NCBI GenBank assembly: GCA_963664295.1
Contig: OY760935.1
Span: forward strand, 736,001 to 800,000
Reading direction: 5' to 3'
Source of the DNA: Candidatus Altimarinota bacterium
GTDB lineage: Bacteria > Patescibacteriota > Gracilibacteria > CAIRYL01 > GCA-016699755
Length of the DNA stretch: 64,000 nt
Shown: piece by piece, positions 12,484 through 47,091 of the stretch
Position numbering within the stretch: position 1 is the stretch's first letter
Layout: the number at the start of each line of letters is the position of its first letter
Translations under genes and position numbers: made by a program
Notes under the pieces: model-generated
What the model saw: the letters and a program-made list of their open reading frames with translations, nothing else
Databases searched by the model: none
Told to the model about the DNA's origin: nothing

Positions 12484-12498
12484 AATTTTCAAAGAGCT
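12484..12498 (-). promoter_or_regulatory. boxA-like leader AGCTCTTTGAAAATT upstream of ssrA
   Basis: Identical 15-mer upstream of rnpB (47077-47091); resembles rrn boxA (GCTCTTT-AA); preceded by a TTGATT/TATAGT promoter. Confidence 0.7.
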
Positions 12499-12600
12499 AA
12501 TAAACTATACCAGAAATAAGAAAAAAATCAAGACCACAAAACTTCATCTGTTGACAAAAAATAAATTTTAAATTAAAATGCTCTTCCGTTTTTAATTAAC

Positions 12601-13116
12601 ATGCCCACATTAGGAACTATTAAAAAACATTTCGACAATGCTCTTGTACAGGCTGAAGGCATAAGAAAGCCTATATCAGCCTTAAAAGAAATCTCTCCTC
12701 TATACGAAGTAAGCTCAATTATGCAAAGAATTGTTGCAGTAAATAGAAGAAAAGAAGCTGATAAAAAATATATTGTGCTTGAAGAAATAATCTCACAATT
12801 ACAGTCGCGATTAAAAAAAATAATAAAATTATCAAAGCAAAATGAATTTCAAGAGATGTTGGCAAAAAAAATAAATGAATTAAAAAATTTACTAAAAGAA
12901 TTTACAAAAAATGCAGAACAGGATTTTTTAGATAAAGTTGATGGCAACTTTACTGCGCCAACAATTGGTAAAAATAAACCTAATATTGACCCAGAAGAAA
13001 CTGCGTCTAATGATCAAATTTGGGTTTCAATAACTCAGCGTGACCCCCTAGAAACACTGGTCTACAAAACACCAAAAGAGCCAGATCCTTTCTCAGGTTT
13101 TACTTGGGATGAATAA
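12601..13116 (+). CDS. Hypothetical protein
   Basis: 171-aa ORF with TTGACA-17-TAAAAT promoter at 12551-12579. Confidence 0.7.
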   Translation: MPTLGTIKKHFDNALVQAEGIRKPISALKEISPLYEVSSIMQRIVAVNRRKEADKKYIVLEEIISQLQSRLKKIIKLSKQNEFQEMLAKKINELKNLLKEFTKNAEQDFLDKVDGNFTAPTIGKNKPNIDPEETASNDQIWVSITQRDPLETLVYKTPKEPDPFSGFTWDE

Positions 13117-14784
13117 TTATCTTTCCAGAAGCCCCTTTCTTGATTGCTGATACTTATTGCTCTGTGGATAATAAATCAAAGCCTGATCTATGCTTTGCAT
13201 AGCTTTTTCTTTATCGCCTTCAATGTAGTAAATCCTTGACGCAAGATAATAGGTTTCTGCCCAATAAGGATGATCTTCTTTTAATGTATTGATAATTTTT
13301 TCAGCTGTCACCATATCACCATTTCTTATAGACTCAATTGTTAATGTTTGAGCAAATTTTCTATTTGAAGGATGTATTTGATGCGCTTGTAAATAATCTT
13401 CTTGATAATAAAATTTATCTGCCAACCACATCGCACTAGCGGAATAAATCAAAAAAACGGAAATAAAAACCACACAAATCGCATATCCAAATGGCATTAA
13501 GCTCTTTTTGCCATATTTTATGTTATTAAATCCAGTTAAGCCTAAAAATAAAAAGAATAAAAAGAATTCTGTGACAGAAAAAAACTCAAACATTCTTGCT
13601 AAAAATGTTGCTAAAATAGCTATAAACAAAGGACTGCGGGCACTACTAGAAACCAAAGCAAAAACTACAAAAAGAAAATAAGCAATTGCGCCAATCAAAC
13701 CAATTTGAATAAAAAAATCAATAAATTCATTGTGCGCCCTATCTAAAATACGAAAATCAACTAAATCAAAAAGTCGTTCATTGTCAATTCGTTCTAATAT
13801 AAGCTCCTGGTTTTCCAGCCCTGCTCCATATAAAAAATTAGTTTCCTGCGTTATTGTTGGCAAATTTTTCCAAATTAAAAGTCTTGTTTCTGTGGATTCT
13901 GAACGAGAATTAAAGCTGTCATAAAGAAAATAAGCCATGCCTGAACCAAGCAAGGCAGTCACAAAAAACACACTCAAAACTTGTTTCCAATTTACTGCTC
14001 GCAAAACAGCAAACAAAAATAAACCAAAAAACAAAGCGATAAGTCCAGCACGGGATTTTGTTGCCAAAATCCCCGCAAAAATTAAAACAATTAGTAGTCC
14101 ATAAATAATTTTTTGTTTATTTTTAGACTTAAAAAAATAATGTAATCCTACAAAAAACGGAAATAACAATAATCTCGCCAAATAATTTGGCTGACCCATG
14201 GTGCCAATACTGCGTTTATTGTAGGTATCAAGCTGTAAATCGGAAAATAAAAATGTTTTTTCTAAATATTCTTTTATTTTTTTATAACGCTCTGATTCAA
14301 TCTCAGGTAAAAAATCAAATTTAATATACTGAACAATGGAAACCATAGCCTCAAGCGCCCCAGCCACCATCAAGGGCACTAAAAAATATTTAAAAAATTC
14401 TTTTTTATTAGGTTGCAAAAGCACAGCATAAAGCACCAATAAAAAAACCGCTCCATAAAAAACCAAACCCTGATGATAAATAGCAGAACCCCAAAAACTC
14501 TCCAAAGGAGAAAGTGAATAAAAACTTGAAATAACTAAAAACGCACAAAATAAAAGAAAAAACACCAATGAAATCACCTGATATTTATTAAGTAAATATT
14601 TAGGTAATTTAATAAAAATAAACAAAAGCGAAATAACACCACAAAAAATTAAAATAAAAGTAAATTTGTTTATTTCAAAAATCTGATCAGTAAAACGCGA
14701 GTATATAAAGGGGAGAAAAAATATTAATAAGCTATAAAGTGTTAAAACTATTTTTCTCATGTTCTTATTATGCAATAATTTCAT
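13117..14784 (-). CDS. O-antigen ligase/Wzy_C-like membrane protein with C-terminal TPR
   Basis: GTMGQPNYLA, TKSRAG, R..IW, DRAHNEFID...IGLIG; TPR-like tail. Confidence 0.88.
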   Translation of the reverse strand: MKLLHNKNMRKIVLTLYSLLIFFLPFIYSRFTDQIFEINKFTFILIFCGVISLLFIFIKLPKYLLNKYQVISLVFFLLFCAFLVISSFYSLSPLESFWGSAIYHQGLVFYGAVFLLVLYAVLLQPNKKEFFKYFLVPLMVAGALEAMVSIVQYIKFDFLPEIESERYKKIKEYLEKTFLFSDLQLDTYNKRSIGTMGQPNYLARLLLFPFFVGLHYFFKSKNKQKIIYGLLIVLIFAGILATKSRAGLIALFFGLFLFAVLRAVNWKQVLSVFFVTALLGSGMAYFLYDSFNSRSESTETRLLIWKNLPTITQETNFLYGAGLENQELILERIDNERLFDLVDFRILDRAHNEFIDFFIQIGLIGAIAYFLFVVFALVSSSARSPLFIAILATFLARMFEFFSVTEFFLFFLFLGLTGFNNIKYGKKSLMPFGYAICVVFISVFLIYSASAMWLADKFYYQEDYLQAHQIHPSNRKFAQTLTIESIRNGDMVTAEKIINTLKEDHPYWAETYYLASRIYYIEGDKEKAMQSIDQALIYYPQSNKYQQSRKGLLER

Positions 14785-14808
14785 TATAAAAAAAATTTAT
14801 TTTTTAAA

Positions 14809-15387
14809 ATGGATTTTAACAACAAACAAGAAGTTGAAAAAACTATAGCCCTAATCAACAAAAAACTGGATCAAGGAGAAAATGTGCTTGATGTTAAAAA
14901 ACAATTTATTAGTGCTGGCAATAACGAACAAGATTGGGATTTTTTAATCAACAAATACGGAAAAAAAAGCACAAAATCACTACTTAAAAAAATCTTTTTA
15001 GGCATACTTACGCTAATATCATTAAGTACAATATTCATTAGTGCTTACTATATTATGTCTGAAGTTTTTTACATAACCCCTGAGAGACATATTTTACTGC
15101 TTATATATTTCTTTATTGCCTTATTAATAACCGAGGGAATTGTTTGGCTTTTTGTTGAAAAAAATTCACATTCAGTGTCTTTAGTTAAAATACTTTTATT
15201 CATTACAATTGATGCAATTTTGATGCCAATTAATCCAATAGCAAGAGGTATTAATAGTTTTATATTTATCTTTTTTATGTTCAGAATTAGTTTCTCTGCT
15301 TATGTAATATTAGTTATGCTAACTTATTTTATGTATTATGTCGTTTTGTCATTAGGAATGTCGCTAGGCAAGTTCATTTACACTTAA
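14809..15387 (+). CDS. Hypothetical membrane protein
   Basis: 4-5 hydrophobic segments; 5 nt before the next gene. Confidence 0.7.
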   Translation: MDFNNKQEVEKTIALINKKLDQGENVLDVKKQFISAGNNEQDWDFLINKYGKKSTKSLLKKIFLGILTLISLSTIFISAYYIMSEVFYITPERHILLLIYFFIALLITEGIVWLFVEKNSHSVSLVKILLFITIDAILMPINPIARGINSFIFIFFMFRISFSAYVILVMLTYFMYYVVLSLGMSLGKFIYT

Positions 15388-15392
15388 AACTA

Positions 15393-16433
15393 ATGAAAGA
15401 GATAATTTTTGCTTCATTATTGGCTTTTACACTTAGCATTTCTGCATCTTTTTTAATGTTAAAATTTTTTCCAAAATGGGGACTAATGGACAAACCCTGG
15501 AAATATGGACACAAAAGAAAGCCAATCCCCTACCCAGCGGGTATTGCCATGCCTATTATTTTTTCTATAATTCTTTTATTTTTTCTGCCTTTTGATAAGC
15601 ATCTTTTTGCGCTTGTTTTTGGCACACTTTCTCTTGCGATTGTTGCTTTTGTTGACGACAGAAAAGGCTTAAATCCTATTTTTCGTCTTAGTTTTCAGGT
15701 TTTTATTGCTCTGGTGGTTATTGCTTGTGGCATAGGCATAGAAGTAATTTCCAATCCGCTTGGTGGTCACTTTGAACTCAATCAATACAGCCTAGATATA
15801 CCAATCAATAGCATTGATTATCAAATAACTCTACCGTCTGATTTATTCACAATCATCTGGATTATAATAATGATTAACACCCTTAACTGGCTTGATGGTG
15901 TTGTTGGTCTTTCTGCTGGCACTTCTGCTGCGGGAGGTTTAACTCTTGGTATTCTTTCGCTCACTCCGCTAGTTAATCAACCAGAAATTGCCTTAATTGC
16001 TTTTGTTTTTGCTTTTGTTGCCTTAGGCTTTTTGCCTTTTAATATTGCTCCACCAAAAATGCTTTTGGGCGACGCTGGTGCAATGCCCTTAGGCTTTATT
16101 CTCGCTATGTTGGCTATTTTTTCTGGCGGAAAAGTTGCCACTGCCTTCTTGGTTCTTGCACTTCCTGTTTTAGATGCATTTTGGGTGGCTTTATATAGAA
16201 TGATGCATGGAAAAATGCCCTGGAAAGGACAAGATAAAGCTCATCTCCATGATCGCCTGCTTATGTTAAATTGGAACAAAAGACAAATTTTCTTTTTATT
16301 TTTTCTAACTTCGGTTTTTTTGGGTTCAACCAGTCTCTTTTTGGGCACAACCGGAAAGGGCGTAGTAGTTTTCATCTTGCTACTTAGTTTTTTCATTTTT
16401 CGCTTTCAAATCGAAAGAAAATTACAAAAATAA
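15393..16433 (+). CDS. MraY/WecA/TagO family (glycosyltransferase family 4) polyprenyl-phosphate GlcNAc-1-P transferase
   Basis: FVDD, INTLNWLDGVVGL, LLGDAGA, HLHDRL. Confidence 0.92.
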   Translation: MKEIIFASLLAFTLSISASFLMLKFFPKWGLMDKPWKYGHKRKPIPYPAGIAMPIIFSIILLFFLPFDKHLFALVFGTLSLAIVAFVDDRKGLNPIFRLSFQVFIALVVIACGIGIEVISNPLGGHFELNQYSLDIPINSIDYQITLPSDLFTIIWIIIMINTLNWLDGVVGLSAGTSAAGGLTLGILSLTPLVNQPEIALIAFVFAFVALGFLPFNIAPPKMLLGDAGAMPLGFILAMLAIFSGGKVATAFLVLALPVLDAFWVALYRMMHGKMPWKGQDKAHLHDRLLMLNWNKRQIFFLFFLTSVFLGSTSLFLGTTGKGVVVFILLLSFFIFRFQIERKLQK

Positions 16434-16436
16434 AAA

Positions 16437-17342
16437 TTATTCCCCAAAAGCTTCTGCCATTTTTAATAATCGCGTAAAATTTTCATCAACATTTGTCTGA
16501 ATATCTGCAAGCAAATTCTTATTTTCTTTTTTAAATAAGTGCGCAAAACGCTTTTGACCTTTTAAAAATTCCTCAATTGGCTTTCTTTCTTGTGGTTTAA
16601 AATTAATTTTCCATTTTCCGTTTTTAACCTCAAAAAGAGGCCAAAAATTAGTATTTACCGCATTCATAAGCACATCATTGCCTTTTTCTGGTGGCAATTT
16701 CCAATTAGTTGGACAGGTGGTTAAAATATTCAAAAAAGCAGGTCCATCAACTTCAAAAGCTTTTTTTGCTTTCATTTTTAAGTCAGCAATATGCGAAGGC
16801 GAAGCTTGAGCCACATATGGAATATTATGAGCTACCATAATCTCAGTTAATAACTTCCTTTTTTGTGGCTTACCACTAGGTGAAGTAGAAGTTGAAGAAT
16901 ACAAAGGAGTAGAGCTGGAGCGCTGATTGCCAGTATTCATAAAACCCTCATTATCAAAGCAAACAAAAACAGCATTGGTTCCCCTTTCAACAGCACCAGA
17001 AAGCCATTGCAAACCAATATCATACATAGCTCCATCACCACCAATACATAAAAATTTTATATTTTTTTGACTTTCTTTTAATTCGCCAGTTTTTAAGCGT
17101 TTTTTATGCAAAGCTTCCAGTCCAGAAATAACACTGGGTGCATTTTCAAAAAGAGAATGTATCCAAGGCTGACGAAAAGCAGTGTAAGGATAAGCACCAA
17201 AGCAAATCTCTGAACAACCAGTAGAATTAGCAGTAATAACAGGCCCATTCACCATGCTCAAAATAGCACGCAAAGCAATAGGAGTACCACACCCAGGGCA
17301 CATTCTATGACCCGAAGCCAAAATTTCCTCAGCTACATTCAT
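16437..17342 (-). CDS. porB: Pyruvate/2-oxoacid:ferredoxin oxidoreductase beta subunit
   Basis: GHRMCPGCG, TGC, GGDG...DIG, DNEGFMNTGNQRS (TPP-binding), CP. Confidence 0.9.
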   Translation of the reverse strand: MNVAEEILASGHRMCPGCGTPIALRAILSMVNGPVITANSTGCSEICFGAYPYTAFRQPWIHSLFENAPSVISGLEALHKKRLKTGELKESQKNIKFLCIGGDGAMYDIGLQWLSGAVERGTNAVFVCFDNEGFMNTGNQRSSSTPLYSSTSTSPSGKPQKRKLLTEIMVAHNIPYVAQASPSHIADLKMKAKKAFEVDGPAFLNILTTCPTNWKLPPEKGNDVLMNAVNTNFWPLFEVKNGKWKINFKPQERKPIEEFLKGQKRFAHLFKKENKNLLADIQTNVDENFTRLLKMAEAFGE

Positions 17343-17438
17343 CTTTTCTATTTTTTATCTTTTATTAAAAAAAGTCAAAAAGCTTTTTCTTTATTTTTTT
17401 AAAATATTTTGGCAAAATAAGCAGGATTAAAATAACGC

Positions 17439-18008
17439 ATGAAAAGCAACAGTATTAAAAAAGCATTTTTAAATCTCAGTCTATCACGAAAAATCGTTCT
17501 AATTGGAGCAATTCTGGCAATTATTTTTGCTTTTATGCCTTGGTTTGAAACAAACGACACAAGTCTTATCACTTCTGACAAGCCAATAAAAATCAATGGC
17601 TTTGGAAGATATGGCATATTTGGCACCGTTTCTGTGCTTTTTAGCCTAACCTGCATTTTAATTCTCGTTAGAGAAGCTTTAACTGGCAAAGAAAAAACTT
17701 TTTCCTTTGCAAACTCAACAATTTGGATGTTTCTGGCTGGTGAAGCTGTTTTTGCTCTCACTTTAGGCATTTTTGTATTTTCAACAATTTTTGACGAAAC
17801 ATCAGAAGCTGCTTTCCGCTTTGGTATATTTTTATCAATATTCTCACATATTCTAATTTTTGGAGGTGCACATTTTTCTTTTTCCGAAGAGAAAAAAATA
17901 GCAAACAAAAAAGCATTTAGATCAATGAGCGAAGAAGATTTAGCAAAATTAAATCTTCAACCCGAAGAGCCTGATGTTTCTAACGATCAACTTAGTTTTG
18001 GCGATTAA
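17439..18008 (+). CDS. Hypothetical membrane protein
   Basis: 4 TM segments with an F(M)PWF motif; first gene of the run leading to recA. Confidence 0.75.
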   Translation: MKSNSIKKAFLNLSLSRKIVLIGAILAIIFAFMPWFETNDTSLITSDKPIKINGFGRYGIFGTVSVLFSLTCILILVREALTGKEKTFSFANSTIWMFLAGEAVFALTLGIFVFSTIFDETSEAAFRFGIFLSIFSHILIFGGAHFSFSEEKKIANKKAFRSMSEEDLAKLNLQPEEPDVSNDQLSFGD

Positions 18009-18011
18009 ATT

Positions 18012-18302
18012 ATGACAGAAGACGAAATACCCGCATTTAGCATGGAAGATGCGCAAAAAGTGGCATATAAACCAATCCCAGAAGAGGAATGGGAACACCA
18101 AAAAGTAGTTTTTTATTGCCACGATTGTGAAAAAATAGTTCAAGGAAAAAAGCTGGGCAAAAGCTTAAAATTTGCCTGCGCAGAATGCAACGGCAATAAT
18201 GTCAGCTATGGAACTGAAAAAAGCATAAAAAATCACTTCCGTATCCAAGAAGAAACACCAGAAGAGGAAAACACTGAAAAAAAAGAAGAAGAAAGCAAAT
18301 AA
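18012..18302 (+). CDS. Small zinc-ribbon protein
   Basis: CHDC...CAEC cysteine pairs. Confidence 0.75.
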   Translation: MTEDEIPAFSMEDAQKVAYKPIPEEEWEHQKVVFYCHDCEKIVQGKKLGKSLKFACAECNGNNVSYGTEKSIKNHFRIQEETPEEENTEKKEEESK

Positions 18303-18360
18303 TTTACTTTAAATAACTAATAATTTACAATTTTTACTCTTTGATTTTTTAACACACAAA

Positions 18361-19386
18361 ATGAGCGAAGGAAAAAACGAAGCGCTAAAAAACGCACTCT
18401 CACAAATTAAAAAAAGCTATGGCGAAGGTTCAATTATGCAAATGAACGAAGCTTCACATATGAAAACCGAAACAATTTCAACTGGTGCTCTTTCGTTAGA
18501 CATAGCACTTGGAGGGGGTATTCCAAAAGGCAGATTGATTGAAGTTTTCGGCCCAGAAAGCGCAGGTAAAACAACATTAACCCTGCAAATTGCCGCAGAA
18601 GCACAAAAAAAAGGTGGACAAGTTGCCTTCATTGACGCAGAACATGCTTTAAATTCTGAATTTGCTGAAAAAATAGGCTTAGATTTATCAAAATGTACAA
18701 TTTCTCAACCTGATTCCGGAGAAGATGCATTAGAGATTACTGAAATTTTGGTTCGTAGTGGTGCAGTAGATCTAGTTATTGTGGATTCTGTTGCTGCTCT
18801 TACTCCAAAAGCAGAAATCGAAGGAATGATGGGTGATAGCCACATGGGCTTACAAGCAAGATTAATGAGCCAAGCACTAAGAAAACTAACTGGTGCAATC
18901 TCAAAATCAAAATGTACTGTTATTTTTATCAACCAAATTCGCCATAAAATTGGCGTTATGTTCGGTAGCCCAGAAACAACAACAGGAGGTAATGCTCTTA
19001 AATTTTATTCCTCCGTTCGCTTAGACATCCGCAGAATTGCCAAAATCGAACATGGCACAGGCGATGATAAAAAACAAATTGGCAACAAGGTGAGAGTAAA
19101 AGTTGTAAAAAATAAACTCGCTCCTCCATTCCGCCAAGCAGAATTTGACCTAATGTTTTCAGAAGGCATTTCCCGCGAAGGTGATGTGCTCGATCTAGCT
19201 GTTAGCAAAGATATAATCAAAAAAGCAGGTGCATTCTTCTCATATGGAGACACAAAACTAGGTCAAGGACGCGAAAATGCCAAACAATTCTTCCGTGAAA
19301 ACCCTGATTTAATGACAAAAATTGAAAAAGAAATTAAAGAAAACTTAAATAAACCAGAAGAAAAGAAAGAAGCCAAGAAAAAATGA
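18361..19386 (+). CDS. recA: Recombinase A
   Basis: [45 protein letters not shown]. Confidence 0.99.
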
Positions 19387-19853
19387 TTTTAACCGGAGAA
19401 AACAACGAAACATTGCGTAAAAAATCAACAGAAGTTGATTTAAAAAAAAGCAAAGAAATAATTAAAAAATTATTCAAAAATATCTCAAAAAAAGAAGCCG
19501 CGGGCCTTGCGGCTCCGCAAATTGGTGAAAATTATCGAGTTGTATTAGTACAAAATGGAGACGATTTTATGCCCATGATCAACCCAAAAATCACCAGTTT
19601 TTCAGTTAACAAAGAAATTGACGAAGAAGGCTGTCTTTCCTTGCCTAATATCTGGGGAAAAGTGCCAAGACACAGCGAAATAGAAGTGCAATACATAAAC
19701 GAACAAGGCGAAAAAATTCAAAAAAGATTTTCCGGCTGGACAGCACGCGTAATTCAACACGAAATCGATCATTTAGATGGAGTTTTGTTTATTGATCGTG
19801 TCACAGAAGAAAACTCAAGCTTAAGTAATTTAAATAATTTGCAAAAATTATAA
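19383..19853 (+). CDS. def: Peptide deformylase
   Basis: [22 protein letters not shown]. Confidence 0.97.
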
Positions 19854-19909
19854 TTTTCAAACCTTGACTGTATTAAAAAATAATTATAAGGTGTCTTCCT
19901 CCTTAATAT

Positions 19910-20356
19910 TTGAATATGAAATATTTATCAGCCAACTCACTAAAATTTGCAAGCACTAACAAAATAGACGCAGAGAATTGTCCTGATTTTCAGGGCTTAC
20001 AAACTATAATATCAACACAAGATGAAGTTTTAGCGCGTTTAATCACCTGCATAAACCTAAATCCAGACAATTCATGTACTAAAACAGGACAAAATTGCAC
20101 CTGCCTACAAACAGACGATCTTACGCCCATATCAACAAAAATAATAAATATGGGAGACATAATTTCCATTATTTCAAAAGAAGTAAAATCAACACAATCA
20201 ATAGAGAATTTCAAGCAAAATATTCAAACAATAATCCAAAAAATCCTCAAAGCAATACAAGACGCAGAAGATGACATAAAAACATTTTTTCCAAAAACAA
20301 CCCCAACACACTGCATTAAAAACAGAACCTTCCAAAAACATTTTAAAGAAACCTAA
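19910..20356 (+). CDS. Hypothetical protein
   Basis: 148-aa Cys-containing ORF, no recognisable motif; start may be the ATG at 19916. Confidence 0.55.
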   Translation: MNMKYLSANSLKFASTNKIDAENCPDFQGLQTIISTQDEVLARLITCINLNPDNSCTKTGQNCTCLQTDDLTPISTKIINMGDIISIISKEVKSTQSIENFKQNIQTIIQKILKAIQDAEDDIKTFFPKTTPTHCIKNRTFQKHFKET

Positions 20357-20369
20357 ATCAATAGCTTTG

Positions 20370-21062
20370 TTTGGCGCATTGAAGATTTTTCGTGTGTATC
20401 CTAGGTCAAATAGATATTTAATTGAATAAATTAAAATCCAATAATTAAGGTATTTGTTTTTGTTTTCGCGCTCTTTTAATTTACCTTCAGGGGATTTTTC
20501 GTGTGTATCCTAGGTCAAATAGATATTTAATTAAGTAAATTAAGCACAAAAAAACACCCAGTAATTAAGGTGCTTTTTTGTTTTTGTTTTCGCGCTCTTT
20601 TGACGCCTTGAGGATTTTTTGTGTGTATCCTAGGTCAAAATAAGCTTGGACGACCAATCCACTCTTCTTGCCATCCTTTGGATAGTATTTTCGGTCTTCC
20701 CTGGACCTGCCCCATTGATGTTTTCGAGTCTAGGGCACATATGTCCCTGCTGAAAACGAGGCACTCAGAGCAAGCTCTGAGAAGATGAGCTCTTAAGGCT
20801 AGTCGTGCCAGAAAAGCTACATCGGAAAGCGAAGAAGACGGAACCTTTTCTTATGAAGCAAAAGAGTGTAAAGATGCTAAGAATAATGCTTTTTTTGTTT
20901 TGCTTTCTTGCTCTTTAGTCTTTTCTCTTCTCAAGAAAAGGCTCTTGTCTTTTTCACTTATGGTAAATCTTAAAATTTTCAAAGGTCGTTTTGTTTTTAT
21001 TTGTTTTTTTATTTTTTTGTGTGTATTTGTGTTCGTTTTTTTTGATTTCTGATTTTGTGTTT
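20370..21062 (-). ncRNA. Candidate large structured ncRNA (locus A); strand tentative
   Basis: No ORF of 60 aa or more; minus-strand TTGCCA-17-TAGAAT promoter (21097-21069); boxA-like CTTTGAAAATT (20984-20974); GC-enriched nested helices at 20650-20870. Confidence 0.55.
20384..20639. repeat. Three copies of a 27-nt core GATTTTT(C/T)GTGTGTATCCTAGGTCAAA, in units of 109 and 120 nt
   Basis: Cores at 20384-20410, 20493-20519 and 20613-20639; units 1 and 2 also share TAGATATTTAATT, AATTAAGGT and TTTGTTTTTGTTTTCGCGCTCTTTT. Confidence 0.92.
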
Positions 21063-21284
21063 CAGAACATTCTAATCAAAAAAGCCCAATCTGGCAACTA
21101 AAACCCCTTGCATGAACAATAAAAATATTATTTAAATATAATTTAATATCAAATAAATAGCTTAAATAAGCCATTTTAATTTTTTTGACTTTTACAAAAA
21201 ACATCATATATAATGATATGAATTATTTAGATACAATCAAATAAACACGTAAAATTACGTGCTTATTTTTTATAAACTCATCAT

Positions 21285-22769
21285 CTAAAATCTCTTATCC
21301 TCCAAATACTCAGCTGGCACATATTCAATCGGCAATTCTTCAATTGGCAAATAATCGAGAGGATTAACATGCTCCCCATCTTCAAAAACCTCAAAATGCA
21401 AATGCGGACCAGTGGTCATCACACCAGCACCTTTTGTTCCTGGAGTACCACCAGAAAGACCAATAACCTCTCCTTCTTTTACAGTATCCCCCTCTGTGAC
21501 CAAAATTTTAGAAACATGACCATAAAGAGTAGTTAAATTATTTTTATGAGCCAAAATAATATAAGAATAACCCATACCATTATCTACAACCTTATACACA
21601 TAACCCAAAGCAGGTGCACGAATAACCTTGCCCTGCGCATAGCGAATATCAATAGCATGATGCTTCATACCAAAAGTCACTTCATAACTAGGATCAAGAT
21701 AATAAGCAGTAATACCACCAGAAGGATCAACAGGCCAAACAAAAGGAATTCCCTCATCAGCATCTTCAAAAATCTTACCAACCTCAAAATTTTCATCACT
21801 CTCATTTTCCTCAAATTCCTCACGCACAGTCATAAAAGCATCCTGCTTCTGTGACTCCAAAATCTGCAATTTTTCTCTAATCATCTCCCTATCATCACGC
21901 AAATCTTTAATAGCCTGCACACTATCCTCCATTTGTTCACGAGATTCTTCCCATAATCTCTGATATTCTTTTTGCTTTCCCTGAGTTTGACGAATTAAAT
22001 CTTCTTTTGCCTGCTTTTGCACCTCAATATTGTGCTTCTCCTCTGACAATTTAGCGTTTAATTCTTCCAATCGCTCTTTTTCTTGGTTCAAAACTTTTTG
22101 AGTTTCCTCAACCTGCAACAAGGCCAATTCCATATTGTAAAAAATTTCTCTTTCTGTTTTTTCCCAAGAAGAAAGATACATTTCATTACGCAAATGAGAA
22201 GAAAAAGAGCTATCCGCCAAAAGCAAAGTAATAGTGTTTTTTACCTCATCATCTCTAAGGCGAGCATTTTCCTTTTGAATAAGCTTAAAAAACTTCAAAA
22301 CCACCTCTTTTTGTGCATCTGCCTCTGCTTTTATTTTTTCTTCTTCTTCATAAAGCAAGCCAAGATCGGACTTTTTCTTTAAAATCTGCATTTCAATCGC
22401 AGAAATTTTTTCATTTGTTTGATCAAGTTGTAAGTTTATGTTTTCTAGTTGTTGCTTAAGCAAATTAAGCTCAGAGCGTACCTTAACAAGCATTTGCTCT
22501 GTCACTTGTGTTGCTTTTAGTGAATCACTAAAGTCTTTATATTCCTCATCAAGTGAATATTTTATTCTTTCTAATCTTAGTTTTCCTTCTGCCATACGAT
22601 CAGCAAAACGATCCTTATAAAGCTCCTCCAGCTCTTGTTCAAGATATTTTTCTTCCTCTTCGCTTAATGCTGATGCACTAAAAAACCCTGTCAAAAACAG
22701 TGCTAAAACTAATGTTATTGCTAGTAATACCGATATTTTATTTGTCTTTTTTTTCATATATTTTATCAA
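21285..22769 (-). CDS. Coiled-coil protein with C-terminal M23 peptidase (EnvC/MepM-like)
   Basis: Signal peptide, long coiled coil, HHAIDI, TLYGH, TGPHLHFEV. Confidence 0.92.
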   Translation of the reverse strand: MIKYMKKKTNKISVLLAITLVLALFLTGFFSASALSEEEEKYLEQELEELYKDRFADRMAEGKLRLERIKYSLDEEYKDFSDSLKATQVTEQMLVKVRSELNLLKQQLENINLQLDQTNEKISAIEMQILKKKSDLGLLYEEEEKIKAEADAQKEVVLKFFKLIQKENARLRDDEVKNTITLLLADSSFSSHLRNEMYLSSWEKTEREIFYNMELALLQVEETQKVLNQEKERLEELNAKLSEEKHNIEVQKQAKEDLIRQTQGKQKEYQRLWEESREQMEDSVQAIKDLRDDREMIREKLQILESQKQDAFMTVREEFEENESDENFEVGKIFEDADEGIPFVWPVDPSGGITAYYLDPSYEVTFGMKHHAIDIRYAQGKVIRAPALGYVYKVVDNGMGYSYIILAHKNNLTTLYGHVSKILVTEGDTVKEGEVIGLSGGTPGTKGAGVMTTGPHLHFEVFEDGEHVNPLDYLPIEELPIEYVPAEYLEDKRF

Positions 22770-24239: not shown

Positions 24240-24240
24240 A

Positions 24241-39939: not shown

Positions 39940-40012
39940 TAGCGTTTTTTGAGGATAATTATTATACTAAAACACGCTTTTATCAAAACAATTTTAATTT
40001 TTTTATTAAAAA

Positions 40013-40039
40013 TTGTCAATCTAAGCTCTAGAGTGCTAA
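40013..40039. promoter_or_regulatory. CIRCE-like HrcA operator overlapping the dnaJ -35
   Basis: TTGTCAATC-N9-GAGTGCTAA (one arm 9/9, the other 6/9 to TTAGCACTC-N9-GAGTGCTAA); minus-strand TTGACA-17-TAAAAT promoter. Confidence 0.7.
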
Positions 40040-40063
40040 AATTTTTCTACTTTAATATAAAAA

Positions 40064-40516
40064 ATGTATTGTCCAAAATGTAAAGCTGAAGACACTCGTG
40101 TAATCGATTCCCGTATTGCTGAAGAAGGACGAACTATTCGCAGAAGAAGAGAGTGTGAAAAATGCGGAACCCGCTTTACTACATTTGAAAGAATTGAGCT
40201 CGTTGGTCTCATGGTACGCAAAACTAATGACACAACAGAACCATACTCTAGAAAAAAACTCGAAAGAGGAATTAGTCTTTCTTGCGGAAAAAGACCAGTC
40301 ACCCGAGAACAAATCGACGAAACAATTCGTTTACTAGAAGAAAAATGGAGTATGCGCAAAGAAATAAGTTCAAAAGAAATTGGCGAAAACCTAATGCAGG
40401 AGTTAAAAAAACTTGATCATGTGGCTTTCATTCGCTTTGCTAGTATTTATCGCAACTTCAAAGATGTTGAAGAGTTTAAGAAAGAATTAAGCACACTTTT
40501 TAACAAAAACAAATAA
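40064..40516 (+). CDS. nrdR: Transcriptional repressor NrdR
   Basis: MYCPKC...VIDSR...IRRRRECEKCGTRFTTFE; ATP cone; VAFIRFASIY. Confidence 0.97.
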   Translation: MYCPKCKAEDTRVIDSRIAEEGRTIRRRRECEKCGTRFTTFERIELVGLMVRKTNDTTEPYSRKKLERGISLSCGKRPVTREQIDETIRLLEEKWSMRKEISSKEIGENLMQELKKLDHVAFIRFASIYRNFKDVEEFKKELSTLFNKNK

Positions 40517-40574
40517 ACTAGCTTTTTTTATTAGTTTTATGGAAAATAAGGTGTGAAATATTTTTTAATTTGCT

Positions 40575-40817
40575 ATGGCAGATAAAAAAATCAGAAAAAA
40601 AGCCAGTAAGTTTCTCCTAGGTGTAGTCATAGGTAGTGCAGTAGGTTCCATACTAGGCTTAACAATGGCTCCAAAATCCGGTCGAGAAATGCGCGGAGAA
40701 ATAGCAAAAAACTCCAAAAAAACTTGGCAAAAAGTCGAGAATGTTATTGAAAAAAAATCAGCTTCCAACCGTTTTTGGGAATTTCTTCATCATATTTTTA
40801 TTCGCAAAAAAAAGTAA
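40575..40817 (+). CDS. YtxH-like small protein
   Basis: FLLGVVIGSAVGSILGLTMAPKSGREMR. Confidence 0.85.
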   Translation: MADKKIRKKASKFLLGVVIGSAVGSILGLTMAPKSGREMRGEIAKNSKKTWQKVENVIEKKSASNRFWEFLHHIFIRKKK

Positions 40818-40874
40818 TAATTAATTATTACTTTTTCTCTTAAATTAAGAGAAAACAGCAAAAACAATTAAAAA

Positions 40875-42671
40875 ATGATAATTCAGCCTTTCAAAAAACC
40901 AAGCTTTGCAAGCATAAAACTTCCCGGTTCAAAGTCTATAACTAACCGGGTTTATTTATATTCTGCATTAGCACAGGGAACAACAGAATTAAATAATGTT
41001 CTTGAAAGTGAAGACACAGAGATAATGCGCACTGCCTTAGAACAATTTGATATAAATATCGAAAATAATAAAGTTCACGGAAAAGGCGGAAAATTCACAA
41101 AAAAAGGTGACCTAGAAATATATTGTGGCAATGCTGGCACAGCTACCCGCTTTCTCATAGCAATAGCAGGATTAAGAAAAGGTACAACAATTTTTAAAGG
41201 CAAAGAAAGAATGCACTCAAGGCCAATAGAGCCACTATTGCAATCTTTAAGAGATTTAGGAGTAAAAGCAGAAAGCATTAACAATAATAATTGTCCACCA
41301 GTAAAAATCATTGGCACAGGCAAAATAAAAGGAGGTAAAACAAAAATGCGTGGAGACCTTTCCAGTCAATTTTTTTCTGCACTTCTAGCCCTTGCGCCAC
41401 TGTGTGAAAATCCAGTAGAAATTGAAATTGAAGAAAAACTAGTTTCCAAGCCATATCTTGAAATGACTATTGCTCTTTTAAAAAAATTTGGTATTCAAGT
41501 TGATTTCAGTGGACAATTTCTCAAAATAAAACCACAAAAATATATTTCACCAAAAAAATTTGAAATAGAAGGAGATGCCTCATCAGCAAGCCACTTGCTT
41601 AGTATAACCACAGCAGTAGGAGGTTATCTCGAGGTTTATCCATTGCCCGCAGATTCAGTTCAAGGTGATGCAAAATTCTGCACTGTCCTAGAAAAAATGG
41701 GTGCAAAATATGAACAAAAAGAAAATAAATTAATTTTAATTCGCAATCCCGAAAAATACTTAAAACCATTAGTAGAAATTAACCTTGAAAACATGCCTGA
41801 TGCAGCCATGAACGCAGTGGTATTATCCACATTAGCCAGTGGAGAATCGACAATTAAAGGCTTATCCACGCTTCGCCACAAAGAAACAGATAGAATAAGT
41901 GCATTAACAACAGAATTAAAAAAACTAGGAGCAATTGCGGAAAAAGGAGACGACTTTATAAGCATAAAAGGAGGAAAAGAACTAAACGGAGCAGAAATAG
42001 AAACCTACGACGACCATAGAATGGCAATGTGCTTTGCCGTATTAGGAGCAAAAATAAAAAATATAGATATAAAAGATCCAGATTGTGTTAAAAAAACTTT
42101 CCCCAATTTCTGGAAAGTTTTTGAAAAAATGAAACCCAAAAAAAACATAGTATTAAGCGGAATGCGCTGTTCAGGTAAGACAGAACTAGGAAAAAGACTA
42201 GCCAAAACTTGGGAATGGGATTTTTTTGACACGGACCAATATATAGAAGAAAAAGCAGGCAAAACAATTAACGAAATTGTTGCAGAAAATGGCTGGGATT
42301 ATTTCCGCGAACTCGAACACATTGCCTGTAAAAAAGCCAGTGAAATGAGCAATACAGTAATTGCTCTCGGCGGAGGCGCAATCACCTTTCCAAAAAACCA
42401 AGAATTACTAAAAAACTCCCTCAAAATATTCTTACAAATGCCATTAGAAATACTTTGTGATCGCATAGCAAAAACAAGCGATAGGCCATCATTAACCGGT
42501 CAATCACACATTGAAGAAATGGAAAAAATCTGGGACGAACGCAAAAAAATCTACTTAGAAACAGCAGATTTAGTAATAAAATTCAATAATAACGATATTG
42601 AAGACAATGCAAATAATCTATTGACAAAATTGGAAACTTTGTATAAGATAATATCCTTTGCCAAGAGCTAA
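40875..42671 (+). CDS. aroA: EPSP synthase fused to a C-terminal shikimate kinase (AroA-AroK)
   Basis: LPGSKSITNR, GNAGTATR, SSQF, RHKETDR, DDHRMAM; then GMRCSGKT, DTD, FRELE, GGG, RP. Confidence 0.95.
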   Translation: MIIQPFKKPSFASIKLPGSKSITNRVYLYSALAQGTTELNNVLESEDTEIMRTALEQFDINIENNKVHGKGGKFTKKGDLEIYCGNAGTATRFLIAIAGLRKGTTIFKGKERMHSRPIEPLLQSLRDLGVKAESINNNNCPPVKIIGTGKIKGGKTKMRGDLSSQFFSALLALAPLCENPVEIEIEEKLVSKPYLEMTIALLKKFGIQVDFSGQFLKIKPQKYISPKKFEIEGDASSASHLLSITTAVGGYLEVYPLPADSVQGDAKFCTVLEKMGAKYEQKENKLILIRNPEKYLKPLVEINLENMPDAAMNAVVLSTLASGESTIKGLSTLRHKETDRISALTTELKKLGAIAEKGDDFISIKGGKELNGAEIETYDDHRMAMCFAVLGAKIKNIDIKDPDCVKKTFPNFWKVFEKMKPKKNIVLSGMRCSGKTELGKRLAKTWEWDFFDTDQYIEEKAGKTINEIVAENGWDYFRELEHIACKKASEMSNTVIALGGGAITFPKNQELLKNSLKIFLQMPLEILCDRIAKTSDRPSLTGQSHIEEMEKIWDERKKIYLETADLVIKFNNNDIEDNANNLLTKLETLYKIISFAKS

Positions 42672-43150
42672 TAATGTAAGTCAGTTAAATCAAACATTTG
42701 TTTTGGCAAAGAATTGGGCAAGAGACGGGGAATTTTTCACCTGCTCACTCAACAAATCATTGGTGTAGCAGAGGTGTCCCCCCGTCTCAACGATACTCAT
42801 TACGATCATCAAAGGGACAAATCGAATGAGCTAGGTGCAAAATCGTCGACTCGGCGAAAATGCATCAGCTCCCTACCGTTCTTTGGCATATCTGTAAACC
42901 GGAATGCCAGCGGTATTTTTTGTTTTTATTTTTTTTGGACCTGCTATACGCAAGGTTAAAAACAATTTTTTTATTTTTGTTTTTTTTGTTCACCTCACAA
43001 GGAGGCTACTTTTTAATGGTGTCGGCCAGAGTCGAGTGGCCATCAAAAAGTAGGGAGGAAGAGAGCTTGAATATTTTTATGTTTCAATTAAGATTAATTT
43101 GGTTTCAAGCCCCAATTCCTAACTACCATTTCCGTCTCTGTCAAAGATCA
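42653..43150. ncRNA. Candidate large structured ncRNA (locus B) between convergent sigma70-type promoters
   Basis: About 9 consecutive hairpins plus long-range complementarities; + promoter at 42621-42649, - promoter at 43191-43163 followed by boxA-like GATCTTTGACA. Confidence 0.6.
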
Positions 43151-43242
43151 AGTTATCAGATAATTTTATCAAAAATTTTCTCATCAGTCAATCACTTCCT
43201 TTTTCTTAACGTTTCATACTATAATACTATAATTTAAAATAA

Positions 43243-43833
43243 ATGTCAAATCTAAAAGGTAAATTATTTTTACTCATCGGACCCTCTGGAGTAGGCAAAG
43301 GCACAATAATAAAAAACCTCAAAAAACAGCATAAAAACTGGGTATTTCCGGTTTCCGTCACAACTCGCAAAAAAAGACCCGGCGAAAAAGAAGGCAAAAC
43401 TTATTATTTTTACAGCAAAGAAAAATTCGAAAAACAAAAAAAAGAAGGAGCTTTCCTGGAGTGGGCATGTGTACATGGCAAAAATTATTATGGTCTCCTC
43501 AAAAAAACAGTTTTTGATGCACTAAAAAAAGGCAAAGTTGTCTTTCGTGAAATAGATATACAAGGATTTGAAAGCGTGCGCGAAATCGTACCAAAAGAAA
43601 ACTTAGTATCAATTTTTCTTTTACCGCCAAGCCTAGAATTGCTAGAAAAAAGAATTCGAGAAAGATCACCACTAACAGACGAAGAAGTAGCCAATAGATT
43701 AAAAAGCGCAAAAAAAGAAATATCCTTAGCAAAAGAGTGTACTTATCAGGTACAAACAGTGAACCTAGAAATCGAAAAAGGTGTAAAAGACATAGAAAAT
43801 ATTGTTTTTAGTGAACTTGCTGACAAAAGCTGA
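43243..43833 (+). CDS. gmk: Guanylate kinase
   Basis: GPSGVGKGT, SVTTRKKRPGEKEG, FLEWA, YYG. Confidence 0.96.
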   Translation: MSNLKGKLFLLIGPSGVGKGTIIKNLKKQHKNWVFPVSVTTRKKRPGEKEGKTYYFYSKEKFEKQKKEGAFLEWACVHGKNYYGLLKKTVFDALKKGKVVFREIDIQGFESVREIVPKENLVSIFLLPPSLELLEKRIRERSPLTDEEVANRLKSAKKEISLAKECTYQVQTVNLEIEKGVKDIENIVFSELADKS

Positions 43834-43866
43834 TTTTGCTAAGCTATTGCTTGTTCTAAAAAATAA

Positions 43867-43941
43867 TGCCCGGTAGCCAAGCGGTAAGGCAGGGGACTCT
43901 GAATCCTCTATGCGTAGGTTCGAATCCTACCCGGGCAGCCA
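43867..43941 (+). tRNA. tRNA-Gln (anticodon CTG)
   Basis: TGCCCGGTAGCCAAGCGGTAAGGCA...CTCTGAA loop...GGTTCGAATCC...GGGCAGCCA. Confidence 0.96.
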
Positions 43942-43989
43942 TTTAAAAACAGTTGTCACAAAGTGACAATTTTTTTAAATTATTGTTTA

Positions 43990-44125
43990 GGTAGGATCGA
44001 GAACCTGGTTCGACACTCAAGCGAGCGAGAGAATTTGCGCTTGTGCAAAATTCCGAGCAAGCGCAGAAGGCCTTGTTTTTGAGGAGCAAAGCTCCGAAAA
44101 AATGAGCATCCTACCCGGGCAGCCA
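43990..44125 (+). repeat. tRNA-linked structured element ending in an 18-bp copy of the tRNA-Gln 3' end
   Basis: ATCCTACCCGGGCAGCCA at 43924-43941 and 44108-44125. Confidence 0.8.
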
Positions 44126-44186
44126 GTTGCTTAGCGATAATTACAAAATTATCGTCTTTTTTGTCAAAAAACAGTAAATTATAAAT

Positions 44187-45038
44187 ATGAAAATATTACT
44201 TAAAATCACTATTTTCTACTTGTTTATGGTAAGCTTTCTGTCAAGCACTATGGCAACAGCCGGCTGGGCAGAATGGTCTTATGATTTTGAATATAATAAT
44301 TTTATTGAACTTAACAAATGGGTACCTGACGATGAATGCAAAAACTGTTTTCATATAATATCAAAAAGCAATCGCTATCAAGAAAGAACTATAAAACCAC
44401 TAAAAAAAATAAGCATACCTAAAAATAATAATGAGCCATTGCTTATAGCACAAACAATAGATGATATTTGGCATATATATAACTCTCAAAAAAACGAAGT
44501 TATTTTAAGTGGAAACAAAAAGGACATTCTACAAAAATGGCAAGGATTAGGTTTTCAAAAACCAAAATTTATTAATGATGATTTATCAGATGTATTTAGC
44601 GAAACGCATTACTCTAAAGCGCAAAACGAAAAGCATGATCAACTTTTACTAATACTAAGTTTATATATGATACTTCCTGTTTTATTACCTATATCAATTG
44701 CTATTTTTTTATGGATATTTTTTTGCTTGGCATTAAAATTTAAAATTATTAATAACAAACTAAATTATAAATATTTTTTAATCTATCCTCAATTTATAAT
44801 GTTTTTTGAGGGCTTAGTATTAAAAAAATGGCTCAATGACTCTTTTAATATAAACACAGCTAACATTTTTATCGACTATTGGATCTGTTTCTTGCCTTTT
44901 ATAATTTTCCCGCTAATTTTGTTAATCAGTAAAATTAATAAAAAACAAATCAATAAAATTAATCTTTGGGAATTTTTTCTATTTTATCCTGCCACAACAG
45001 GTTTTTATTTCTATTTTCTATTTTTTGTACTACTATAA
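44187..45038 (+). CDS. Hypothetical membrane protein (very AT-rich)
   Basis: Signal peptide, soluble domain, about 4 C-terminal TM helices. Confidence 0.7.
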   Translation: MKILLKITIFYLFMVSFLSSTMATAGWAEWSYDFEYNNFIELNKWVPDDECKNCFHIISKSNRYQERTIKPLKKISIPKNNNEPLLIAQTIDDIWHIYNSQKNEVILSGNKKDILQKWQGLGFQKPKFINDDLSDVFSETHYSKAQNEKHDQLLLILSLYMILPVLLPISIAIFLWIFFCLALKFKIINNKLNYKYFLIYPQFIMFFEGLVLKKWLNDSFNINTANIFIDYWICFLPFIIFPLILLISKINKKQINKINLWEFFLFYPATTGFYFYFLFFVLL

Positions 45039-45043
45039 GCCCC

Positions 45044-45790
45044 ATGAACATAACAATAAAAACACCGGAAGAAATTCAAATCATGCGTGAAGGTGGCAAA
45101 ATCCTTGCCACAATCTTAAAAACACTCAAAAAAGAAGTTAAAGAAGGAATAAGCACAGCAGAACTCAATCAAATTGCACTCAATATGTGTGCGCAATATA
45201 ATGTTCAACCTAGTTTTTTAGGATATGGAGGATTTCCTGGTGCAATTTGCGCCAGCGTAAATGAAGAAATAGTTCATGGAATTCCTTCAGATAAAAAACT
45301 AAAAAAAGGCGATTTAATTAGCATCGATTTTGGTGTATATCATAAAGGACTACACACAGACTCCTGCATTACTGTACCAGTTGGTGAGATTTCTCCACAA
45401 AAACAAAAATTATTAAAAGTCACAAAAGAAGCTCTAAATAATGCCATTTCCCTAGTTCGCGATGGCGTTCAGCTTGGTGATATTTCTAATATTATCCAAG
45501 AAACTGCGGAAAAAAATGGCTTTAATATAGTAAAAAACCTGACTGGACATGGTATAGGTGAAAATCTCCACGAAGAACCTCAAGTTCTTAATTTTGGCAA
45601 AAAAGGCACAGGAATAGTTTTAAAAAAAGGCATGACCATTGCAATTGAGCCAATTATTACTATTGGAAGCCCAAAAAACTACACCCTGAGTGACGATTGG
45701 ACCATTGTCACAGAAGACGGGTCGCTATCTGGTCATTTTGAACACACAATGGCAGTCACTCAAAACGGCGCTGATATACTGACAACCTAA
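45044..45790 (+). CDS. map: Methionine aminopeptidase type I
   Basis: SVNEEIVHGIP, DFG, TDS, GHGIG..LHEEP, AIEP, HFEHT; ATG at 45044. Confidence 0.97.
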   Translation: MNITIKTPEEIQIMREGGKILATILKTLKKEVKEGISTAELNQIALNMCAQYNVQPSFLGYGGFPGAICASVNEEIVHGIPSDKKLKKGDLISIDFGVYHKGLHTDSCITVPVGEISPQKQKLLKVTKEALNNAISLVRDGVQLGDISNIIQETAEKNGFNIVKNLTGHGIGENLHEEPQVLNFGKKGTGIVLKKGMTIAIEPIITIGSPKNYTLSDDWTIVTEDGSLSGHFEHTMAVTQNGADILTT

Positions 45791-46725
45791 AAACTAAGTC
45801 GATAAGCCTGATCTCCCTCTAAAAGCAACAAAATGCTATCCTCGCTTTCGCAATTTATTTGTAAAAGAGGTTTGTTGATTGAAAAATCAATTATTTGTGT
45901 TTTGTCTACCAAATCATCGACACTTATTTGATAAAAAGCGTTATTTTCCACAATAAAAAAACTTTTTTTATTATCTACAACACAAATTGAATTTAAATCT
46001 GTATCAAAATTAAACTCTTGAAAGTCTTCATCGTTTTTTCTAAACAAAATTCCACCTTCAGCCTGTACAAACAAAAAATTCTTATCAAAATAAACTTCTT
46101 TTATCTGCTTTCCTGCCAATAATTGATATTTTCTTTTTCTTTTTATGTCAACTTCAAAAAGTTGATTATCCGCTACAACAAATGCTTTATTGCCAGCAGG
46201 ATAAATATCTGCCTTTTCTATTCCCTCAAATTGAGATACAAATTCACGCTTTCCGTTTACGCCTAAAAAATAAAACTTATTATCTTCTCGGCTCAAAACA
46301 AAAACATTACCAACTTCATCAACAGCATAAAAATCTTCAACAGAAAAAGAAGAAATTGGCGTTAAATTTTCTTTAAAAACTGCTGGCACTTGTTCAAGCT
46401 GATCCAAAGAGGGTATTTTTTTAGGCTTAACAAGAACTACTTTGTGTTGACCTAATGTAGCATTTACCTCTGCAGAAGTTTGAAAAAATCCTTCTTTATT
46501 AATTCGCACAATATATTTATCTGGAGGTAAAGAAAATTCGCAATTTTCTTTTTCACATTGCAAACGAGCATGACCAACAAAATCTGCCTCAAAAGGAGCT
46601 TTAATGCCCTCAAAAGAAACAAAGCCTTTATTTAACCAAACTCTAAAAATCAACAAGCCAATTAAAACTATTGACGCAAGTAATAAAAACTTTTTGTTCT
46701 GAAATAAATTAGCTAGAAAGTTCAT
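45787..46725 (-). CDS. Hypothetical membrane-anchored protein (PEGA-like segment, possible beta-propeller)
   Basis: N-terminal TM helix; LPPDKYIVRINKEGF. Confidence 0.7.
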   Translation of the reverse strand: MNFLANLFQNKKFLLLASIVLIGLLIFRVWLNKGFVSFEGIKAPFEADFVGHARLQCEKENCEFSLPPDKYIVRINKEGFFQTSAEVNATLGQHKVVLVKPKKIPSLDQLEQVPAVFKENLTPISSFSVEDFYAVDEVGNVFVLSREDNKFYFLGVNGKREFVSQFEGIEKADIYPAGNKAFVVADNQLFEVDIKRKRKYQLLAGKQIKEVYFDKNFLFVQAEGGILFRKNDEDFQEFNFDTDLNSICVVDNKKSFFIVENNAFYQISVDDLVDKTQIIDFSINKPLLQINCESEDSILLLLEGDQAYRLSF

Positions 46726-46747
46726 AAGCTAATTATACATAAAAATC

Positions 46748-47076
46748 GGCGCCGTATAAGCCGAATTCTGTCGAGGGCAATCATCTATCTAGACATATTG
46801 TTGCCAATATGTTCCAGCAGCGGGCGAATTTATAAACCCAAAGCAAGGTTAAATTATAAATTCCCCATCCCGCCTTGCACACAAGTGGGGTTTACCAAGA
46901 CTTCTTTGTCGCCAAAGATCTCCCCGAAAACTAAGGGGCGTTTCATATTTCTCGTCTCTGCGGCACTTTCCGTACCTGAATCTTATTAGGTTTTCAGGTC
47001 ATTTCCGTTAGAAATCACTTTTGCTTTTGTGTGTTCGGACTTTCCTCCTCGCAAGCGAGGCGATTGCCACGGCGCC
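46748..47076 (-). ncRNA. rnpB: RNase P RNA
   Basis: GAGGAAAGTCC near the 5' end, ACAGAATTCGGCTTAT near the 3' end, P1 helix GGCGCCGT/ACGGCGCC. Confidence 0.96.
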
Positions 47077-47091
47077 AATTTTCAAAGAGCT
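47077..47091 (-). promoter_or_regulatory. boxA-like leader AGCTCTTTGAAAATT upstream of rnpB
   Basis: Identical to 12484-12498. Confidence 0.7.

Follow-up and report, generated by a model that had tools for sequence, protein, structure and literature searches.

We analyzed a stretch of 64,000 nucleotides (hereafter the window; contig OY760935.1, positions 736,001 to 800,000 of the forward strand) from Candidatus Altimarinota bacterium, class Gracilibacteria of the Patescibacteria, whose closed genome (G000) comprises 1,215,430 bp with 33.5% GC and 8.5% intergenic DNA. Our subject is a boxA-like leader motif that an earlier note on this DNA had placed before the genes for transfer-messenger RNA (tmRNA) and RNase P RNA and at two non-coding loci, named here 43149 and 20987 after the first base of the motif. 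All four motifs were confirmed at their positions on the minus strand. The tmRNA gene (12048..12482, minus strand; Rfam RF00023, 123.7 bits, and ARAGORN) is preceded by a boxA-containing 15-mer (12484..12498, minus strand) that starts a few nt after the -10 box and leaves a gap of 1 nt to the mature tmRNA. The identical 15-mer (47077..47091, minus strand) overlaps the start of the model match for the class A RNase P RNA (46741..47079, minus strand; RF00010, 176.1 bits), and these are the only two exact copies in the genome. Contigs from three sequencing runs of one sample showed zero letter differences across window positions 11500-22000.

The motif matches the boxA consensus as given in the available parts of PMC5725501 and PMC13753749, and it lies on the transcribed strand, a short distance past a promoter. 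The earlier note had asked for the motif in the ribosomal RNA (rrn) leaders and for a nusB gene, and both were found: boxA variants occur in the leaders of 16S, where a small hairpin precedes the box, and of 23S, the 16S gene being unlinked from the 23S-5S genes in this genome, and NusB is encoded by a 141-aa frame (PF01029, 110 bits). In the best-scoring 30 of 46 genomes of the class, boxA was present within 70 nt of tmRNA in 13 (at 13-15 nt in 11 of them), compared to 1 of 90 control windows, so that the link with tmRNA claimed from a single genome is conserved across the class. Before RNase P RNA it was found in 3 of the same 30 genomes (0 of 90 control windows), and within the family of the window's organism 3 of 7 RNase P leaders carry a strict boxA and two more a near-match, the RNase P arrangement thus being mostly local to this family. 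In G000 just 3 of 37 tRNA genes are preceded by boxA. A relaxed boxA pattern lay behind a promoter in 19 of its 305 matches (6.2%, against a maximum of 4.7% for 30 permuted patterns), a modest excess. As separate observations, a second copy of the 5' part of a tRNA gene stands 60-80 nt ahead of the intact gene at C1:419414 (tRNA-Met), 591493 (tRNA-Tyr), and 606549 and 1068128 (tRNA-Ser), and a repeat of ~130 bp, probably a small dispersed repeat, is common to the RNase P upstream region (window 47180-47300) and C1:1191560-1191690, where it follows a paralog of the 20987 RNA.

Locus 43149 is flanked by gmk (guanylate kinase; 43243..43833, plus strand; Pfam PF00625), a divergent neighbor whose synteny is kept across the class, and by aroA-aroK. 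A predicted extended -10 sigma-70 promoter (43163..43191, minus strand; 10 of 12 positions matching) precedes the boxA variant (43139..43149, minus strand), and a second promoter-like site on the same strand (43249-43221) overlaps the start of gmk. The boxA forms the 5' end of a predicted non-coding RNA (ncRNA) of ~420 nt (42720..43138, minus strand), composed of a variable 5' hairpin, a conserved core (42867..43060, minus strand) delimited by covariance model matches, a hairpin that provides the kissing partner, and a terminal hairpin whose internal loop is conserved. The core is closed by a helix of 13 bp, P1 (about 43057-43045 with 42881-42869), and contains a P2 hairpin whose loop (43036-43029) pairs with 42852-42846 in a kissing contact, A/C-rich linkers (42990-42966 and 42936-42916), and a small pseudoknot (about 42914-42885), all on the minus strand; these ends were read off the sequence ruler and are accurate to a few bases. 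Folding of the ~420 nt gave a z-score of -5.0, and no sense-strand open reading frame (ORF) with a Pfam match was found at the locus. A helix joining the 5' and 3' ends in G000 was considered and dropped, as homologs favor the local terminal hairpin.

Base pairs covary across the homologs, as expected of a structured ncRNA. Among 30 diverse copies, 10 of the 13 P1 pairs change on both sides, and 49 double-change cells were counted against 17 in shuffles (none of 500 shuffles reaching this number) and 14-22 with the partners slid by one or two columns, in an alignment that was not structure-fitted and whose register was chosen by the analyst. The kissing loop has at least five Watson-Crick pairs in 34 of 71 homologs compared to 6-16 in 20 shuffles, with at least nine different complementary versions of the pair, and the contact is lost in some sub-lineages. 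P2 and P1 compete for a conserved pyrimidine strand that has three mutually exclusive partners, namely the 5' purine strand of the variable hairpin, the local P2, and the distal P1 purine strand, the latter being preceded by a small pseudoknot or by a hairpin with an A-rich loop. One to three single-stranded A/C-rich tracts rank among the most conserved parts, and a GC-rich terminal hairpin with a U-tract ends most homologs.

The three exclusive partners of the pyrimidine strand are switch-like and could speak for a cis-acting leader or switch, or for an element acting at the DNA level, rather than a free RNA; the same could be said of the frequent position of the element, outside the Gracilibacteria, upstream of a same-strand gene of the DksA/TraR family (dksA-like). 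In Gracilibacteria, however, it points away from gmk and into a convergent gene, and most homologs end in the hairpin and U-tract just described. G-U wobbles are retained strand-specifically, on the RNA strand, and together with the covariation of the kissing pair this argues for a folded RNA and makes the cis or DNA element very improbable. A template RNA of a retron, diversity-generating retroelement or defense-associated reverse transcriptase was also rejected, no reverse transcriptase being linked to an element that sits beside gmk and aroA-aroK or beside dinG and the dksA-like gene; a crude scan of 989 ORFs for reverse-transcriptase catalytic motifs yielded 3 unconvincing matches.

BLAST searches with the 43149 RNA recovered it in 7 of 7 members of its own family and in 5 of 12 of the sister family, and pattern searches gave 18 loci in GTDB, 7 in metagenomes and matches in 33 of 301 genomes of the class, some of the 33 being false. 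A covariance model of the core matched 59 of 150 class genomes at E<=0.01 (43 at E<1e-5), a count that includes the training genomes. In 20 weaker matches that were fetched, the core was visible by eye in 19 and gmk was present in the locus in 15. In 29 of 41 homologs the core is preceded, at a distance of 67-149 nt, by a strict boxA, and a pattern widened after inspection raises the number to 36. Outside the class the first core model gave only weak matches, but one genome there (G363) has the full core. A search baited with dinG matched 17 of 200 genomes of the phylum, 12 of them with the core downstream of dinG, and copies outside the Gracilibacteria often lie between dinG and the dksA-like gene, which is often downstream. 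Refined models matched 32 of 150 and 31 of 151 phylum genomes, the latter set containing 22 training genomes and 9 others, of which 5 were inspected and all had the core. One RNA-bearing family is labelled Andersenbacteria. A model built solely from the copies outside the Gracilibacteria finds the RNA of the window (47.5 bits, E 1.9e-7), which provides an independent link between the two groups. The RNA is mostly single-copy, with vertical synteny. All these genome counts are lower bounds, because a whole-genome search with model R2 missed 20987-type copies despite having been trained on them.

Loci L068, L069, L085, L086, L088 and L231 and genomes G308, G348, G426, G055, G394 and G377 were excluded from the homolog lists as false. 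Records titled Nitrospirota (L050, L053, L060) were rejected as a second phylum, since their gene order, with gmk divergent and ssb convergent, is that of Peregrinibacteria; they are likely mislabelled bins or contigs. Two patterns gave 0 matches in viral contigs. As further observations outside the Gracilibacteria, one family (f100; L257, L258, L259) has an RNA version of ~800 nt in which an A/C-rich leader precedes a boxA variant, the layout of the 20987 copy, and in another (f57; L252, L255) the place between dinG and the dksA-like gene is taken by another structured stretch, also conserved, that is unmatched by the models and possibly a very divergent member of the family. Clusters of repeats which we take to be DnaA-box-like lie between dinG and the RNA promoter in seven loci (L239, L240, L246, L247, L250, L253, L257), a hint of replication-linked control or of a nearby origin. 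In G000 a replication-origin reading was dropped, with GC-skew extremes at 330 and 982 kb.

In Rfam 15, with the models for raiA, OLE, ROOL, GOLLD, ribozymes and riboswitches included, no gathering score was reached by the RNA in the window scan or in E-value-mode scans of 13, 12 and 12 loci, which returned only tRNAs and sub-threshold chance matches. A ribozyme or other catalytic ribonucleoprotein with a compact tertiary core, as speculated for the raiA motif RNA, would account for the two pseudoknot-type contacts and the conserved junction, as well as for a mostly single-copy gene in vertical synteny. Against it, the positions invariant throughout the phylum are few (3 in alignment A5 and 4 in A7, located in the P1 strand and the A-rich linker), and no ribozyme family in Rfam matches, which makes a catalytic role improbable.

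The neighborhood also bears on an RNA polymerase regulator akin to 6S or Ms1 RNA, acting in stringent or cell-cycle control. Neither 6S RNA (RF00013) nor signal recognition particle (SRP) RNA was found in G000, and no SRP RNA helix 8 or M-domain of Ffh (the RNA-binding domain of the SRP protein) was detected there, so that these housekeeping RNAs are apparently lacking; the 6S model itself is insensitive, because it recovered 6S in only 5 of 14 reference genomes. The missing 6S, the location beside gmk and the DksA/TraR-family gene, and the presumed DnaA boxes upstream of several copies outside the Gracilibacteria would fit such a regulator. However, the multi-branched, pseudoknotted fold is unlike the 6S rod with its central bubble, neither the 6S nor the SRP model matches the new RNA, a motif scan found no dksA-like ORF in G000, and neighborhood alone is weak evidence; we regard a 6S-like regulator as unlikely.

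At locus 20987 a predicted sigma-70 promoter (21069..21097, minus strand; 10 of 12 positions matching, 17-nt spacer) is followed by an A/C-rich leader predicted to be unstructured (20988..21062, minus strand), the boxA variant (20974..20987, minus strand) and a predicted structured ncRNA of ~430 nt (20546..20973, minus strand) with a 5' rod hairpin, a closing helix (about 20837-20824 with 20681-20662), a kissing loop (20806-20801 with 20655-20650), a small pseudoknot and a terminator hairpin (20581-20546), all on the minus strand. The near-consensus promoters described in the earlier note were thus found at both loci, but at 20987 the boxA lies ~75 nt past the promoter, after the A/C-rich leader, rather than close behind it; promoter-like sites by themselves occur at about twice the shuffled count at the two loci (8 vs 3.5 and 5 vs 2.1). 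Folding gave a z-score of -8.2. A paralog at C1:1190920-1191420 (z-score -4.5) shares the A/C-rich leader, and both RNAs have counterparts of P1, the kissing pair and the small pseudoknot, with a compensatory change in the kissing pair between them. BLAST of the locus against 61 relatives gave short A-rich matches only. Both loci suspected in the earlier note of encoding RNAs resemble structured-RNA genes. Three partial direct repeats of the RNA 3' end with a spacing of ~110-120 nt (20370..20639, minus strand), at which contigs break, are likely duplication scars.

The motif is less selective than the earlier note had assumed. A strict boxA pattern has 38 matches in G000, 16 of them intergenic despite the 8.5% share of intergenic DNA, and of 17 strict sites outside genes 6 lead to ncRNAs, 6 to protein genes bearing a Shine-Dalgarno (SD) sequence and 5 to nothing assigned, so that the leader is not specific to long non-coding transcripts, and as a genome-wide finder of ncRNAs the motif is impure (6 of 17). 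These 6 protein-gene sites start long hairpin leaders, and a seventh such gene was found with the relaxed pattern. By the same score an SD is present in 4 of 778 first-Met ORFs of this genome. The cassettes (C1:88969(-), 170117(-), 265101(-), 269718(+), 332907(+), 574174(-) and 619052(-); loci L328-L333 and L234) share an order of strong promoter, boxA, long near-perfect hairpin, SD and an orphan secreted-type ORF, mostly GC-rich. Four of the leaders form one hairpin family, and three of the ORFs encode paralogous repeat proteins with 24-33% identity. Among the long ORFs of G000, a GC content of at least 0.44 is reached by six of these genes alone (GC at third codon positions 0.50-0.61 against a median of 0.22), and their products have signal-peptide-like starts by eye. 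For one of these GC-rich proteins a comparison with 2801 candidates of similar length yielded no relative, and no donor of the genes was found, all donor leads scoring under 0.8.

In five other genomes the promoter and boxA pattern gave 0, 0, 1, 10 and 17 matches. In the two richest, G036 (10 sites, L335-L353) and G443 (17 sites, L336-L361), an ORF with a strong SD follows 22 of the 27 sites, compared to 9 such ORFs among 275 in housekeeping-anchored loci, a comparison biased toward the boxA set, for which the best start was taken and the first Met for the controls. Many of these accessory genes are lipoprotein-like, and they are mostly not GC-rich. One reading of such cassettes is that boxA in Patescibacteria marks every transcript left untranslated by the cell's own ribosomes, including SD-bearing mRNAs for secreted proteins and lipoproteins that would be exported from the epibiont into its host for translation by host ribosomes, with the new RNA as a part of their handling or delivery. 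We consider this improbable; the import of SD-bearing genes is the simpler reading.

The SD sequences also relate to the 16S 3' end of G000, which is degenerate and lacks the canonical anti-SD motif, a loss recorded for part of the Parcubacteria in the available text of PMC9297842. The new RNA might then aid translation initiation or mRNA handling, its anti-SD-like pyrimidine stretches (in the terminal internal loop and the P3 stem) pairing with the SD of boxA-led mRNAs and thereby replacing the 16S tail or packaging the mRNAs. Many copies from Gracilibacteria have kept the anti-SD-like loop, and boxA heads both the RNA and the SD-bearing mRNAs. However, most copies outside the Gracilibacteria show no evident loop of this kind, and two genomes (G002 and G003) have the RNA with 0 matches to the promoter and boxA pattern, leaving a role in initiation with little likelihood.

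Rho was absent from the matches of two models in G000, and the rho cut-off was reached in 0 of 61 class genomes; on our reading of their size and pairing, 30 weak matches to the rho model are ATP synthase subunits. Protection from Rho-dependent termination, one of the marks of the known boxA, therefore has no counterpart among these genomes, and if Rho is truly absent, antitermination against it cannot be the purpose of boxA here. In the available parts of PMC13753749, boxA loads NusB-S10 in building the rrn elongation complex, and NusB of B. subtilis binds boxA-like RNA; in those of PMC10250234 the rrn complex is proposed to act as a folding chaperone for the formation of long-range helices. 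By analogy with E. coli and B. subtilis, NusB-S10 very probably binds the boxA RNAs of this lineage as well. It would be recruited onto RNA polymerase by boxA right after the start of transcription and, in a cell lacking Rho, would give transcripts without a trailing ribosome a processive, folding-assisting polymerase. Such a polymerase would suit the new RNA, because its conserved strand must exchange an early for a distal partner: the pyrimidine strand would swap its 5' partner for the final one as the 5' end is held near the exit channel. That the Nus complex serves processivity and folding in this manner is, we believe, marginally the better bet. The A/C-rich single-stranded tracts displayed by the folded core may in turn bind a protein, and we put forward only tentatively that they are landing sites for an RNA-binding protein of transcription or translation, with the RNA as a scaffold or sponge. 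A scaffold or decoy is favored because conservation falls on the closing helix, the tertiary clamps and the exposed A/C-rich repeats and not on many invariant catalytic bases; the raiA motif RNA has 51 conserved positions in the available text of PMC10861870.

Taken as a whole, the reading we favor, with reasonable though limited confidence, is that boxA likely loads NusB-S10 just after initiation on transcripts probably not trailed by the cell's own ribosomes, and that 43149 (as probably also 20987) is the gene of a predicted large pseudoknotted ncRNA, a member of an uncatalogued Patescibacteria family likely to act as a protein-binding scaffold or decoy. For 20987, descent from the same ancestor as the 43149 family, as a divergent copy, is probable: in the genome a descriptor of the P1 strands matched exactly these two loci, and 12 shuffles gave no match. 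Several observations weigh against the reading as a whole. The descriptor was designed with both loci already known, and it is on the descriptor that the assignment of 20987 rests; models trained without the 20987 copy missed the locus, and R1 gave no full-length match on 20987-type copies. A strict boxA was present in only 5 of 27 copies outside the Gracilibacteria (0 of 27 on the reverse-strand control; 16 against 6 with a loose pattern). With searches that are insensitive to divergent copies, the RNA was not found in most of the Patescibacteria sampled (31 of 151 matched), and it is scarce in large Gracilibacteria families (1 of 14 in f10, 1 of 14 in f13 and 0 of 10 in f23), so that its universality is not supported.

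Among known systems, the closest to the leader is the rrn boxA with its Nus factors (NusB-S10, NusA, NusG, SuhB), with which it shares the type of 11-12-nt consensus, the place after the promoter, the presence in both rRNA leaders and a nusB gene. It differs in that it also precedes tmRNA throughout the class, RNase P RNA at the family level, the new RNA and accessory mRNAs with an SD, and in that Rho was not detected in the lineage. OLE, ROOL and GOLLD are large multi-helix orphan ncRNAs of bacteria with their own promoter and terminator, which the new RNA resembles; it does not match them even below the gathering score, and its host range and gene context differ. Sponge RNAs of the CrcZ/CsrB type likewise carry repeated single-stranded A-rich motifs on ~400 nt of RNA, but the new RNA has a conserved pseudoknotted core, just two or three tracts and no match to them in Rfam. 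Like the raiA motif RNA, as described in the available text of PMC10861870, it stands alone as a structured ncRNA in which two pseudoknots covary, is inherited vertically and is not placed like a riboswitch; the raiA motif RNA belongs to Bacillota and Actinomycetota, whereas the new RNA belongs to Patescibacteria, reaches a larger size (~420-800 nt), with A/C-rich linkers and only a few nucleotides that are invariant, and lacks an Rfam match.

Beside the 43149 RNA, the aroA-aroK neighbor is a fused EPSP (5-enolpyruvylshikimate-3-phosphate) synthase-shikimate kinase gene (window 40875-42671), and a dehydroquinate synthase II gene lies near C1:1192000. Genes of the aromatic pathway are unusual for so reduced a genome.

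In the literature, supplements of motif-discovery papers and subscription papers aside, we found no description of the RNA family or of boxA before tmRNA, and a search for the terms in PMC11109978 gave 0 occurrences. Previously, boxA was known before suhB and CRISPR arrays in Gammaproteobacteria (available parts of PMC5725501 and PMC13753749), and a boxA near an SD can repress translation in a survey that, as far as its available text goes, left ncRNAs unconsidered (PMC5725501). The link of boxA to SD-bearing accessory genes is new here. The motif is a real boxA in wider use than first assumed, and it leads to a predicted new family of large structured RNAs. Boxes before tmRNA and SD-led accessory genes extend the biology of boxA and Nus into a lineage without detected Rho, in which the role of Nus complexes without Rho becomes testable, and a promoter followed by boxA is a practical finder of orphan RNAs and unusual accessory genes in Patescibacteria. 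The RNA family, with its alignments, models and predicted pseudoknots, is a concrete target for structural work and genetics. In several classes this large folded RNA persists at fixed loci although the genomes, ~1 Mb in size, have lost Rho, SRP and a good part of ribosome biogenesis, which indicates a basic and so far unrecognized function.

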